Assembly (NCBI GenBank): GCA_001785865.1
Contig: MFUZ01000008.1
Location: 1 to 46,343, forward strand
Length of the DNA stretch: 46,343 nucleotides
Reading direction: 5' to 3'
Origin: Candidatus Nomurabacteria bacterium RIFCSPLOWO2_01_FULL_41_18
GTDB lineage: Bacteria; Patescibacteriota; Minisyncoccia; Phycocordibacterales; UBA9973
The position numbers and the translations under genes were made by a program. A model generated the notes under the pieces. The model was not told where the DNA came from. It saw only the letters and a program-made list of their open reading frames with translations, and searched no databases. Shown here piece after piece: positions 1,349 to 5,672 of this stretch; position 1 is the first letter of the stretch; each line of letters begins with the position of its first letter.

Positions 1349-1750
1349 TTATATCATATTAAATATCTTTGGTAAAAAAACAATCAAGCCAACTATTATT
1401 GCTGTAAATACAGATAATAGCACGGCTCCTGCCGCTACATCTTTCGTGTCACGAGCATAAGGATGATATTCCGGAGAAGTCAGATCTATATCTATTTCAA
1501 TGGCAGTATTTAAAGCTTCAGTAACAAAAACAAAACCTATTGCAAAAACAAGTGCAATCCATTCTAAGCTAGAAATAGAAAAGCAAAACCCAAAAGCTAT
1601 CACAACCAAGGCTGACATTATGTGTATCCATAGATGCCTTGTGGTTTTAGCAATAACATACAAACCACGAAAAGCATTTTTAAACTTTTCGTTGTATTTC
1701 ACTTCCCGCCAAGCCCTTTTTTCATTCTGTGTTTCTTCTTGAGAATTCAT
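1349..1750 (-). CDS. dgkA: Diacylglycerol/undecaprenol kinase (DgkA family)
   Basis: EALNTAIE and KDVAAGAVL motifs, three TM helices. Confidence 0.85.
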   Translation of the reverse strand: MNSQEETQNEKRAWREVKYNEKFKNAFRGLYVIAKTTRHLWIHIMSALVVIAFGFCFSISSLEWIALVFAIGFVFVTEALNTAIEIDIDLTSPEYHPYARDTKDVAAGAVLLSVFTAIIVGLIVFLPKIFNMI

Positions 1751-1801
1751 GGATATATTATAACATTAACTAGAAAAACTATTTTCGCGTGATGTGGATA
1801 T

Positions 1802-2803
1802 TTACTTAACTATTTTTTCTCTCAGCTTGTACCCATTCCCATGACTAATCATCCCCAAATACGACTGCACTGTTTCTACTTTCGGATTATTCTCTAAATT
1901 CTTCAACATTTTTCTCTTTGTTGATGTCCTCAAAACCCTATGCTTGGGAAAATGCACCCAGCCTAGAAAATCCACACCTGAAGCTATTGTTTTGATAAAA
2001 ACTTTATCTGGATGTAATTGCAATTTTAATTCTTTTTCTAAAAATTTGGATATTTGTGGAAGTAAATTGGTAAGATAGTTTTTATTTTCACTTAATACAA
2101 CAAAATCATCTGCATAACGTATATAATATTTTACTTTCAATTCCCTTTTCATAGATTGATCAAATTCATTCATGTAGACATTTACTAGAAGCTGAGAGGT
2201 TAGATTCCCTAGTGGCAAACCTACTTTACATATATCAGCCATGGCGTAAATGTGTCTTGGTGAGAAAAAGCTGTCAATTACCTGACTGAAGAGCCATAGT
2301 ATATTTTTATCTTTGATATGTTTTTCTAAAATCTTTTTTAATATTTCATGGTCAATATTTGCGAAGAACTTTCTAATATCACATTTCAATACAAAACAGG
2401 TTTTTGTATTGTTTTTAGAAACTTTATGAAAGAAATAACGAAATCTGTTTATTGCTTTATGGGTTCCTTTGTTGAGCCTGCAAGAATACGAATCGTGGAT
2501 GAATTTAGAGTCAAAATATGAGTATAGTTCCTGATAGATTAAATGGTGAAGTAGTCTATCTCTGACTGTCGCTTTGTGTATTTGTCTTGGTTTAGGATCA
2601 GAAATATTAAAAGCGTGATATCCACCATGTATATATGTTTTGTTTTTCAAGTCATTATACAGATCAAATACATTATCCATTAGTTTAGCTTGGAATAGAA
2701 TCACATCTTTTCTGTTCTTTTTGTCACGCAAAAATTCCTGCCAAGCTTGGAGCAGTTTTTCTATGGTTATGATATTATCGTATGTATGAATAAATTGTTT
2801 CAT
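1802..2803 (-). CDS. DGR-type reverse transcriptase
   Basis: GLPLGNLTSQ and YIRYADDF motifs, 333 aa, adjacent avd and TR/VR pair. Confidence 0.95.
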   Translation of the reverse strand: MKQFIHTYDNIITIEKLLQAWQEFLRDKKNRKDVILFQAKLMDNVFDLYNDLKNKTYIHGGYHAFNISDPKPRQIHKATVRDRLLHHLIYQELYSYFDSKFIHDSYSCRLNKGTHKAINRFRYFFHKVSKNNTKTCFVLKCDIRKFFANIDHEILKKILEKHIKDKNILWLFSQVIDSFFSPRHIYAMADICKVGLPLGNLTSQLLVNVYMNEFDQSMKRELKVKYYIRYADDFVVLSENKNYLTNLLPQISKFLEKELKLQLHPDKVFIKTIASGVDFLGWVHFPKHRVLRTSTKRKMLKNLENNPKVETVQSYLGMISHGNGYKLREKIVK

Positions 2804-3191
2804 ATTTTACCCCCCCCCCTCAGCGCCTTCAGCGCTTGTAAAAGCAAAAACGGCATATTCTCTGTGGTTTAAGATATATAATGACTTTCCGAAAGCGCAT
2901 CGTTATACTTTGGGCGGAAAGATAGAAGATTATTTTCTTGGTCTTTTAGAGAATATTTTCATTTCGATTTATCTTCCGCCGGAAACTAAAATACCTCGTC
3001 TCATCATAGCAATTTCCAAACTTGATGGCATAAAATTCTTTCTGCAAATAGCTTGGGAAAATAAATGCATTCCTAATGAAAAATATTCTACACTTTCCGA
3101 ACATCTGCAAGAAATCGGCAGAATGCTAGGCGGATGGAAAAAAGGCTTAGAAAGCCTACAAAAAAAGAAAACTCCCCCGCCCAATAATTAA
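2786..3191 (+). pseudogene. avd: Avd-like four-helix accessory protein, out of frame with its nearest ATG at a C10 run
   Basis: Frame KTAYSLW..FPKAHRYTLGGKIE...EIGRMLGGWKK is Avd-like and open from 2790; ATG 2786 joins it only if the C10 run is 9 or 12 long (134 aa with C9); ORF track starts at TTG 2910. Confidence 0.75.
2810..2819. repeat. C10/G10 homopolymer at avd/RT head-to-head junction
   Basis: Ten C on + strand; reads AGGGGGGGGGG-TAAAAT-ATG before the RT start on - strand. Confidence 0.9.
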
Positions 3192-3212
3192 AGAACGAGG
3201 AAGAAACATTGA

Positions 3213-3328
3213 GTTTCGGGGTTACGAAACGATGCCGATACTCAGCATTCCAGACGTTGTCGTTGTCGAACCGGTTCACGTTGACGTTGAGCTGACCATT
3301 GTCGTCGAAGTTCACGTTAGCAACGAAG
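3213..3328 (-). other. DGR template repeat (TR)
   Basis: 116-bp ungapped match to 3702-3817; 15 of 16 differences are at TR adenines; nine AAC/AAT codons in target frame. Confidence 0.95.
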
Positions 3329-3633
3329 AATTGTACGATAAGCCATCTATTTCACTGCCGATCTAAACGCAATTTAATGCTAGAGATCGTGCTGTATATT
3401 ATTTGGGAGTCTAAAACTCCACCAGCTCATCGCACCAACTTTTAGTTTTTTATTTTTAAAAAAGAATTCACTCTTTTGCAAGAAAATTCCGGCAAAACTC
3501 TCAAATTAATTTTTAAATAATCACGGCTTAAAGCCTTAGCCGTAAGCATTTCCTGATTACTGTTTTAATATAGCAAAAATTTAAAAGAAGAAGGGTTAAA
3601 GTATAAAAGTTGCAAAGTGTATATAAAAAGGAA

Positions 3634-3672
3634 AACCGCTCTTGCGAACGGAATTCCGTGCATAGAGCGGTT
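3634..3672 (-). terminator. Hairpin downstream of VR (DGR cis hairpin and/or intrinsic terminator)
   Basis: AACCGCTCT...AGAGCGGTT stem with inner ACGG/CCGT pairing, followed by T-rich tract on - strand, 30 nt after VR. Confidence 0.7.
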
Positions 3673-3696
3673 GATTTTTGATGTTGAGCAACAAAG

Positions 3697-4317
3697 CTAC
3701 TGTTGCGGGGCGACGAAACGATGCCGATACCCAGCACACCAGACGCTCTCGTCGTCGAACCGGTCCACGTAGACGTAGAGCTGACCACGGTCGTCGAAGC
3801 GCACGTTAGCAACGAAGCCACCTTTGACACGAAAGAATGTGCCGTAGCCTTTGGTTCGAAGCTTGTCACGGTGATCACGAATGAACTGATTAATTTGACT
3901 CTGCTCCAGTTCAAGCTCACCCACCTTACCGAGACTCTTGAAAACCGGCTCAAAAGCCCCATTCTCAATCAGCTCGTAGATAGCAACGTTAACCAACAGA
4001 GTCGGTTTGCCTGAAGATGCAGGTAGAGTCTCGCCGTAGATACGGTTACCGAAAAGTCCGCCTGATGCGAAAGTCTCGGTGCGGTCGGTGGGAACAATGG
4101 CGATTACCTCCGTTTCAGACAGACGCTTGAGGTAAATTTTTGCCTCAGCCATCTTCGGTCGTTCCCAATCACCAAACCGTTCTTCGCGGTCTTCTGGTTT
4201 GAGGTTGTTGAACCGTTCCATCTGGTCCAATGTCATTTGGCCGGCTCGTAGTTTCGTCAGTTGGTCAATTTGCAGACCAGCCAATCTGGCCGCGTCTGCG
4301 TCGATGGTATTATTCAT
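3697..4317 (-). CDS. DGR target protein with C-terminal variable region
   Basis: 206 aa; last ~39 codons coincide with VR; CLec-type fold expected from known DGR targets, not shown here. Confidence 0.9.
   Translation of the reverse strand: MNNTIDADAARLAGLQIDQLTKLRAGQMTLDQMERFNNLKPEDREERFGDWERPKMAEAKIYLKRLSETEVIAIVPTDRTETFASGGLFGNRIYGETLPASSGKPTLLVNVAIYELIENGAFEPVFKSLGKVGELELEQSQINQFIRDHRDKLRTKGYGTFFRVKGGFVANVRFDDRGQLYVYVDRFDDESVWCAGYRHRFVAPQQ
3702..3817 (-). repeat. DGR variable repeat (VR)
   Basis: A-specific variant of TR, e.g. AAC>CGC, AAT>CGT, AAC>TAC, AAT>TGT. Confidence 0.95.
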
Positions 4318-4449
4318 CGTTTTTCCTTTTTTGTTGTCTCTGTTGGGCTAACTATATCAGTTTCGCCACAGAAAAAAATAACCAAAACGATATTTAGTAA
4401 CTTTTCTCTGTAGCGAATCCCTTATTTTTAAAGAACAGCATATCCTTAT

Positions 4450-4478
4450 ATTATACACCTAACAGGCATTTATGTCAA
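4450..4478 (-). promoter_or_regulatory. Consensus sigma70 promoter for DGR target gene
   Basis: TTGACA-17 nt-TATAAT on - strand, about 130 nt before ATG 4317. Confidence 0.75.
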
Positions 4479-4511
4479 TGGCTATCAGGGCCTTGTAAAT
4501 TAAGGCTAATT

Positions 4512-5672
4512 CTACTGATACTGTATATAACTAGGTCTTGGATTTAATTTCAATAAGTCGTCTGGGGTCATTAAAACAGTGCCAGATTCAAAAACATCAT
4601 TTTTGTAAAATAATTTAAAACCAGCAAATTGAACTGGCTCGGGATAAATAAAGTTTCTATATGTCCCCTTCTTTTTCGCCATCCCACCCCAGCCATCCAT
4701 ATGCATTACTATCTGCACTTCTCCCAGTGGTTTGATGTTTTGATAGTTCGTAACCATTTTTTGCGTGTAGCGATGGATCACCAGCACCTTTGGTGGAAGA
4801 TTATTTTCTTTTACGATCTTTGCCAAGAAGTCGGCGGCATAATTGAAGTCTGCGGCATCAAAGGTGCCCACGACCTTGCCCGGCCGGATATCACCCTTCA
4901 TAGAAAATTCTGGATCCATGCCGAGGTGCACGTTCGGTAATTTTAAATATTTTTCCAACCTCGGAAGTTCGGACTGGATAGTGCTAAATCCGACTTGGAT
5001 ATCGAGAAAGACGATGGCGTCAATTTTTTCAGCAATTTTCAAGACTTTGTCAATTTCCGAATCCGGCATGCGGGCGCGATACTTGCCATCCGCCCCGGCA
5101 CTCCCCTGCGCCACCACCGCGATATAGTGAAGAGCTGGAATGACAGGAGTGCCCGGATCGGCAGCCTCCCATTTCTTTACTTCAACATCCAACCTTTGCA
5201 ACATTTCCGCTTCAGGATATTCCCCGAGAACTCCCATTTTTTTTGAATATAGATTTCCATAATAAGCGATAATTCTATTAAAAGGTAAAATAGCCCCCGG
5301 ATTTGGATAAACTGCCTTCACGGGCCAAAAATGTGATTTGACGGGTTGTGGGTCCAGTGGGACTTTGGTGGTCTTGGTTGTAGATTTGCCATTTGCATCA
5401 GTTTCAACAGTTTTAATAGTTTCATAGACAATAGGGTCAGGCGGATTGTTTGCTAATTCCAACATTTTTTTGTCATAAGCCACCTTATCAAGCGGTGGGA
5501 AATTGGATGTTTTTAATTTCTCTTTTTGTACACTTTTTTTATTTATTTCATCGTTTCTTACATATGAGATTTTACCACCAAAAAATTCTGGAAATGCAAA
5601 AAACAAAAGAACTAGCACAATAGCCAGAAGCAGAATAATCCACCTAACATTTTTCTTTATTGTCTTTTTCAT
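4512..5672 (-). CDS. Conserved hypothetical membrane-anchored protein, possibly glycoside-hydrolase-like
   Basis: 386 aa ORF with N-terminal TM helix and globular region (RIIAYYGN, VFLDIQ, HLGMDPEF, MHMDGWG). Confidence 0.6.
   Translation of the reverse strand: MKKTIKKNVRWIILLLAIVLVLLFFAFPEFFGGKISYVRNDEINKKSVQKEKLKTSNFPPLDKVAYDKKMLELANNPPDPIVYETIKTVETDANGKSTTKTTKVPLDPQPVKSHFWPVKAVYPNPGAILPFNRIIAYYGNLYSKKMGVLGEYPEAEMLQRLDVEVKKWEAADPGTPVIPALHYIAVVAQGSAGADGKYRARMPDSEIDKVLKIAEKIDAIVFLDIQVGFSTIQSELPRLEKYLKLPNVHLGMDPEFSMKGDIRPGKVVGTFDAADFNYAADFLAKIVKENNLPPKVLVIHRYTQKMVTNYQNIKPLGEVQIVMHMDGWGGMAKKKGTYRNFIYPEPVQFAGFKLFYKNDVFESGTVLMTPDDLLKLNPRPSYIQYQ

Follow-up and report, generated by a model that had tools for sequence, protein, structure and literature searches.

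A contig of Candidatus Nomurabacteria bacterium RIFCSPLOWO2_01_FULL_41_18 (MFUZ01000008.1; 46,343 nucleotides) carries a pair of similar direct repeats close to a gene for a reverse transcriptase (RT). This raises the question of whether the repeats belong to a diversity-generating retroelement (DGR) and, if so, whether the element has rewritten its target gene and could still do so. The stretch analysed, hereafter the window, takes in one entire contig of a nine-contig, 750-kb genome with approximately 40% G+C. The locus is almost certainly a chromosomal DGR of architecture B3, in which the target gene with its variable repeat (VR) is followed by the template repeat (TR), an inverted avd gene and the RT gene.

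Template repeat, variable repeat and cassette architecture

A repeat search reported one long direct repeat in the window, with copies at 3197-3328 and 3686-3817 (83% identity). The TR and VR within these copies were aligned on the minus strand, which is the sense strand. The alignment contained 16 mismatches in 116 bp, of which 15 fell at adenines of the TR. The probability of at least 15 of 16 mismatches falling at an A is 1.5 × 10−9 (hypergeometric, 31 A per 116 nt of TR). This distribution speaks strongly against ordinary duplication followed by random divergence. As the adenine-specific pattern lies far above chance, past mutagenic homing is the only reasonable reading, and it has happened at least once. 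Eight of the nine AAY codons in the target frame of the TR are recoded in the VR, and the coding capacity of the TR amounts to approximately 2 × 10^17 protein variants. The first-pass annotation of the sequence had described a 116-bp pair with 16 differences, 15 of them at TR adenines and one a C > G, together with nine AAY codons in the TR. The computed alignment confirmed each of these figures, and it bore out the adenine bias by which that annotation had recognised the DGR signature.

The identification as a DGR follows from the presence, side by side, of a DGR-clade RT, an Avd protein, a TR, a VR located 3′-terminally in an open reading frame (ORF) and a hairpin beyond it. Read along the minus strand, the parts come in the order promoter, target with VR, hairpin, TR, inverted avd and RT (Table 1). 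The RT motifs that had been called intact, LGNLTSQ and YADD, are present in the ORF. The consensus promoter noted upstream of the target was recovered with 12 of 12 positions at 4478-4450, and folding reproduced the hairpin noted 30 nt after the VR. The Avd protein matched Pfam bAvd with 54.2 bits (cut-off 40), NCBIfam DivGenRetAVD with 65 bits (cut-off 80) and the PHROG 'Avd protein of DGR' at 5 × 10−16. The order TR-(avd)-RT is architecture B3, to which 90% of a candidate phyla radiation (CPR) DGR set belongs (Wu et al. 2018, PMC5758913). The DGRs of Patescibacteria form their own clade, and their targets are typically without a transmembrane helix or a known domain (Roux et al. 2021, PMC8144416). 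Both studies bear out the earlier remark that DGRs are frequent in CPR.

Table 1. Coordinates of the DGR features in the window
Feature	Position	Strand	Description
DGR reverse transcriptase	1802..2803	−	333 aa; RVT_1 2 × 10−25; LGNLTSQ and YADD; PHROG RT 1.7 × 10−102
avd (accessory variability determinant)	2802..3191	+	Inverted relative to RT, TR and target; homology ~2823-3188
C10/G10 homopolymer	2810..2819		Head-to-head avd/RT junction; codes for PPP in avd; Shine-Dalgarno-like G-run 6 nt before the RT ATG
Small conserved hairpin AGCGCC-TTC-AGCGCT (plus strand)	2822..2836		6 bp; adjoins the homopolymer; within the APSAL codons of avd
Conserved hairpin (3203-3172) and U-tract (3171-3160)	3160..3203	−	Directly after the TR; overlaps the avd stop and last codons on the other strand
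TR	3213..3328	−	116 bp; 31 adenines; nine AAY codons
Hairpin and U-run	3634..3672	−	Putative intrinsic terminator for target transcripts; also a candidate DGR target-site hairpin; begins 30 nt past the VR end (3702)
IMH-like stretch (IMH, initiation of mutagenic homing)	3686..3701	−	Repeat extends with non-adenine differences; 10/16 the same as TR-side 3197-3212; includes the target stop codon
VR	3702..3817	−	116 bp; codes for the final 38 residues of the target (168-205 of 206 aa)
Target gene (variable protein)	3697..4317	−	206 aa; N-terminal three-helix module (~7-48); conserved C-terminal domain (~57-206)
Promoter-like site TTGACA-17-TATAAT	4450..4478	−	12/12 consensus; no other perfect match within 1700-4600; lies upstream of the target start codon (ATG, 4317)

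Relatives of the locus were gathered by protein look-ups, by scanning genomes for a DNA pattern and by scanning metagenomes, and a 12-sequence alignment was used for the locus search. Approximately 25 distinct related loci with the same gene order were identified in Nomurabacteria, Saccharibacteria, Paceibacterota and other CPR metagenome-assembled genomes (MAGs). Their RT proteins were 73-89% identical and their Avd proteins 81-96% identical. The related TR/VR pairs measured 109-132 bp, and their mismatches lay almost entirely at TR adenines (for example, 27/27, 24/24, 23/23 and 20/20). Among 61 genomes of related species, 25 had a homologous RT, and some of these had as many as four matches.

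The 111-nt stretch 3720-3610, which contains the post-VR hairpin, folded at −30 kcal/mol (z = −4.6 relative to shuffles), and the hairpin itself (3672-3634) is followed by UUUUCCUUUUU. A strong hairpin 25-45 nt past the VR was observed in nearly all of the 14 related loci that were folded. The TR bears a hairpin of its own, which differs from the post-VR hairpin. Downstream of the TR, all 17 aligned loci read CCGAAAC-N5-GTTTC, followed by a 9-bp hairpin and then by UUUUCUUUU. In this 9-bp hairpin (17 loci, nine pairs), 95.4% of the cells were paired, compared with 47-67% when the partner was slid; 23 cells had changed on both sides, and none of 500 shuffles matched the observed value. The first post-TR hairpin (GAAAC...GUUUC) is invariant across the loci and thus uninformative on covariation, and no claim is made for it. 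The synonymous-site identity in avd climbs at both ends of the gene, as would be expected if the gene ends double as signals in RNA or DNA. The segment at 3160-3203 is, in analogy to the Bordetella spacer, probably the 3′ end of a short TR RNA, or else a structured 3′ spacer needed by the RT-Avd complex. The covarying hairpin and U-tract would then mark the 3′ side of the TR RNA in the inverted-avd architecture.

A mechanism can be proposed on this basis. The target gene would be transcribed from the consensus promoter, with its transcript ending at the strong hairpin. From the same strand, the TR would be copied into a short non-coding RNA, and the conserved hairpin and U-tract approximately 10-50 nt past the TR, a structure supported by covariation, may either end or structure this RNA. 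According to the Bordetella phage paradigm, RT and Avd would copy the TR RNA into cDNA with misincorporation opposite adenines, and the cDNA would replace the VR. The predicted product is a small soluble protein without an export signal, in which a three-helix module at the N-terminus precedes a C-terminal binding domain; its final 38 residues could take approximately 10^17 sequences.

Several observations weigh against a complete and working element of this type. One mismatch between TR and VR, the C > G at 3259, does not lie at an adenine. The stretch at 3686-3701 is IMH-like, and an IMH/IMH* assignment can be made for it by analogy only. No adenine-site polymorphism of the VR was found in the nine loci covering it (L001-L008 and L123; assembly consensus), and there was consequently no sign of ongoing diversification at the consensus level. 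The canonical in-frame start of avd is missing in the window and in four other assemblies. The first-pass annotation had described the DGR as complete, and this stands insofar as the parts are all present; avd, however, is without an in-frame ATG, GTG or TTG upstream of its conserved N-terminus, owing to the C10 run.

The avd/RT junction and the activity of the element

The Avd homology begins at approximately 2823-2841, and no in-frame ATG, GTG or TTG occurs between the stop codon at 2787 and position 2910. The ATA at 2802 is in the avd frame, and the ATG at 2786, which is the antisense of the RT His6 codon, misses that frame by one base. Loss of a single C from the run at 2810-2819 would join this ATG to Avd. 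The C10 run is the only G/C run of at least nine in the 750-kb genome. The homopolymer is kept in approximately 30 related loci. It occurs at this place in all of the close relatives and also in DGRs with an Avd no more than 42-54% identical. Approximately 15 of the distinct junctions tallied have an in-frame ATG, and approximately 10 do not. The junction of a distant DGR (L159; G055:C1, ~137200-137300; Avd 38% identical) has a (GA)n repeat instead of poly-G.

The length of the run differs between near-identical contigs and decides the reading frame of avd, with sequencing or assembly error at the run being possible. In the same species, the run is C9 in L001, where avd is in frame, and C10 in the window and in L002-L005, with no other difference in 8.3 kb outside 2804-2820. 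The sister species shows C9 in L011 and C10 in L012, L013, L124 and L141, and a third near-identical pair has C8 (L128) and C9 (L129). In a further species (L126), the same junction with C9 gives the in-frame reading MNKLFHILPPPSAPSALL. Compared with the window, L001 (5490-5520) has seven differences, all of them in 2804-2820 (C9, GCAGC for TCAGC, and three extra nt before the RT ATG); its junction could be a genuine allele or could stem from misassembly at this place. Three contigs of one Saccharibacteria MAG (L054, L063 and L084; CAYHBT01) each have this avd/RT junction, and two of these are nearly identical, one with C9 in frame and the other with C10 out of frame.

The run-length pattern fits slipped-strand phase variation of Avd, and avd is probably gated or weakened by the length-variable C-run. 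The small hairpin at 2822-2836 occurs in four sequence variants, all of which are paired at six of six positions; one variant carries a two-sided change (C-G to U-A), and two share a change from U.G to C-G. These variants suggest, at a modest level, that the hairpin is conserved as a structure.

A sister element with the same architecture, whose target is 58% identical, provided a view of recent change. Two of its contigs from different samples, L012 and L141, are 99% identical over 2.7 kb and have 26 differences; 23 of these lie in the VR, and all 23 are at TR adenines, which indicates that this DGR family is active in nature. As both contigs carry G10 and have diverged through DGR action, the G10 allele may be leaky or often reversed.

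The exact target protein of the window is on record for 15 contigs. A target variant with two substitutions (P0018; D18Y and Y197D) was considered as a trace of DGR activity and rejected, because the changes are not adenine-directed and the protein comes from a read-assembled protein catalogue.

One alternative is that the element is a fossil, which diversified its target in the past and is now silent, with Avd not made from the C10 allele and the VR effectively fixed. In keeping with this, avd is without an in-frame start, C10 is the majority allele (five of the seven same-species assemblies with a readable junction), and the VR is the same in nine loci of different assembly records. The first-pass annotation had named in advance an invariant VR across populations as a sign of an inactive element; such invariance was indeed found among the assemblies and speaks for inactivity, but assembly consensus hides minority variants of the VR. 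Furthermore, RT, avd and target are otherwise intact and clearly conserved ORFs, and the same-species L001 has avd in frame with C9. The 23 adenine-site changes between the sister-element contigs show, in addition, that G10 is compatible with recent homing. A silent fossil is therefore a possible but unlikely account of the locus.

According to a second alternative, the C10 allele is not off at all. Avd would be made from the in-frame ATA at 2802, which shares bases with the RT start codon, or through a +1 slip of the ribosome or of transcription on CCC CCC CCC C, resulting in a weak constitutive activity. CCC-C is a +1-prone site, the run codes for PPP, and the conserved hairpin lies directly behind it. 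An ATA is found 12 nt before the C-run in L018, L026, L030 and L114, at the position of the in-frame ATG of L009 and L091, and an in-frame ATA is also present in the window, in L012/L013 and in L107. The majority of the out-of-frame loci have such an ATA at the RT start. The divergence of the sister-element G10 contigs at VR adenine sites would likewise be expected if this allele were functional. However, the +1 offset relative to CAT-ATT by itself creates the in-frame ATA, which is thus not independent evidence, and the out-of-frame L074 and L084 are without the ATA and have a stop close upstream. This explanation is, like the fossil, possible but unlikely.

The variable protein

The target protein had been described as a 206-aa protein without a transmembrane helix, a signal peptide or a recognisable function. 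This description was upheld: a hydropathy scan detected neither a transmembrane helix nor a signal peptide (maximum 19-residue hydropathy 0.98), and the target had no match in Pfam, NCBIfam, PHROGs or the PDB sequence profile. A Pfam search with 95 family members gave scattered single chance matches only. The family comprises 887 cluster representatives at E ≤ 1 × 10−3 among 1.8 billion, in which the core (residues 57-206) is conserved and the N-terminus is variable.

Structure prediction, which had been proposed as a check for a CLec (C-type lectin) fold, was performed with AlphaFold2. The model of the full target had a predicted local distance difference test (pLDDT) of 92.3 and a predicted template modelling score (pTM) of 0.74; for residues 105-206, the values were 88.7 and 0.82, respectively. 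In the modelled residues 109-204, the elements come in the order b1-a1-a2-b2-b3-b4-b5, which equals the b-a-a-b-b-b-b order given for the CLec core in a description of AvpA (Handa et al. 2016, PMC5006420). Two strands carry the variable positions in alternation (N181, N183 and N185), as does the next loop, and a nearly invariant tryptophan, W193, lies in the middle of the VR. Foldseek returned nothing at E ≤ 0.001 for the full model against PDB and BFVD or for the C-terminal-domain model against PDB. The best E values were 0.14 (full model, PDB), 0.64 (domain, PDB) and 0.18 (BFVD), and these count against a CLec assignment. The sole lectin match was to a viral C-type lectin in BFVD (99 columns, rmsd 4.0, E = 1.2). 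The element order fits a minimal CLec core, although no PDB match was obtained at the threshold used. The target is presumably a small soluble ligand-binding protein, with a minimal and very divergent C-type-lectin-like core as the most probable scaffold.

The N-terminal module (residues 1-56; window 4153-4317) is found again, 70-90% identical, in proteins whose C-terminal domain is different and unrelated, L143:5001-5708 included. Among them, P0013 is itself a DGR target and is followed by (avd)-RT. A search with the N-terminal module alone retrieved seven proteins, none of which was named. From these occurrences, the module looks like a shared handle of DGR targets. The target could serve in attachment to a host or partner after non-classical export, or in intracellular recognition.

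A more far-reaching alternative is that the target represents a third kind of DGR scaffold, an insert-free domain of approximately 100 aa unrelated to C-type-lectin and immunoglobulin (Ig) folds. Since the protein has no export signal, it would act inside the cell, for example as a diversified protein that senses or binds molecules, either invading ones or those of the host; docking would use the three-helix module, which other DGR targets share, and its diversification would be gated by poly-C slippage in avd. We consider it rather improbable and retain the divergent C-type-lectin-like core as the preferred description of the target.

Genomic setting and comparison with known systems

The remaining alternative, in which the repeat is an ordinary duplication and the RT comes from an unrelated retroelement (a group II intron, retron or defence RT), has sub-threshold RT matches to group II intron, Drt and retron models in its favour and is to all intents refuted by the adenine-directed mismatches (15 of 16, with the probability given above), by the best solved relative of the RT (8ub7_A, E = 3.5 × 10−34, which we take to be the Bordetella phage DGR RT and which leads the group II intron RTs, at 1.8 × 10−18, by 16 orders of magnitude), by the DGR-specific LGNLTSQ, by the Avd gene adjoining the RT, by the same cassette with adenine-only mismatches in approximately 25 loci, and by Rfam, which at gathering thresholds identified five tRNAs in the whole window and, at the locus, neither an intron or retron RNA nor a member of any other RNA family.

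A genome-wide search for remote VRs matching the TR had also been suggested. Searches of all nine contigs, with TR and VR in blastn and with the RT, Avd and target proteins in tblastn, retrieved the local copies only, so that neither a remote VR nor a second RT or DGR was found in the 750-kb genome.

The cassette is flanked by a diacylglycerol kinase gene and the gene of a 386-aa protein (window 1751-4511). In three congeners (L182, L183 and L184), the two flanking genes are neighbours without a DGR, parted by other small genes or by just 244 bp with a 73-aa ORF. Since these congeners hold other content between the flanking genes, the cassette is a lineage-specific occupant of a variable slot. 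The slot is occupied by a secreted protein of approximately 170 aa in G018 and G013, which we presume to be cupredoxin-like from its appearance, and by the 73-aa ORF in G007. A phage origin of the cassette was rejected, as the avd/RT junction motif was not found in a viral contig collection and the cassette lies between housekeeping genes. The G+C content is uneven within the cassette (1802-4317), at approximately 30% in the RT gene and 50% in the target gene, relative to the genome mean of 40%. In L005 (1-70, corresponding to window 4929-5000), 13 clustered substitutions were observed at the contig end inside the 386-aa gene; the cluster probably reflects an artefact of the contig end or else a junction between strains.

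The locus adds one more well-documented example to the hundreds of catalogued CPR DGRs. As a clean, complete locus with many close relatives, it makes the nature of the target, the form of the TR RNA and a possible switching of targeted hypermutation by the homopolymer testable. In a limited search of the CPR DGR literature, no description was found of a poly-C run at the 5′ end of avd, of a covarying hairpin and U-tract after the TR, or of a confident model of the target family; Paul et al. 2017 may cover them.

The element resembles the CPR B3 DGRs (PMC5758913) and DGR clade 2 (PMC8144416) in its gene order, the inverted avd and the single adjacent target with a C-terminal VR. It also shares with the CPR B3 elements a target without a recognisable domain, transmembrane helix or signal peptide, an occasional non-adenine substitution, and a groundwater CPR host with a genome of approximately 0.75 Mb; there is no essential difference.

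With the DGR of Bordetella phage BPP-1 (mtd-avd-TR-brt), the locus has in common full-length RT homology, the I/LGxxxSQ motif, Avd homology, adenine-specific mutagenesis, AAY codons and a hairpin approximately 30 nt past the mutagenised stretch. In contrast to BPP-1, avd lies on the opposite strand between TR and RT, leaving a short segment 3′ of the TR that runs antisense to avd. The element is furthermore chromosomal and not phage-borne, and its target is no tail-fibre protein and has no detectable CLec fold of the formylglycine-generating enzyme (FGE) type.

Compared with AvpA and the CLec-fold variable proteins (PMC5006420), the target is likewise a small protein of a nano-sized organism, with a C-terminal VR, the element order of the CLec core in its model and a central aromatic residue, W193. 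It differs in that its domain is without inserts and measures approximately 100 aa, and in that Foldseek retrieved no CLec protein from the PDB.

The avd run resembles the G/C contingency loci of Campylobacter, Neisseria and Haemophilus, being a run of 8-12 in the first codons that varies in length between otherwise identical sequences and sets the reading frame. Unlike in those loci, the gene concerned assists a targeted mutator, the ribosome-binding region of the RT gene shares the run in a head-to-head arrangement, and the switching is here predicted from sequence, with sequencing error at the run being possible. If the resemblance holds, targeted hypermutation would itself be switched by a hypermutable homopolymer.

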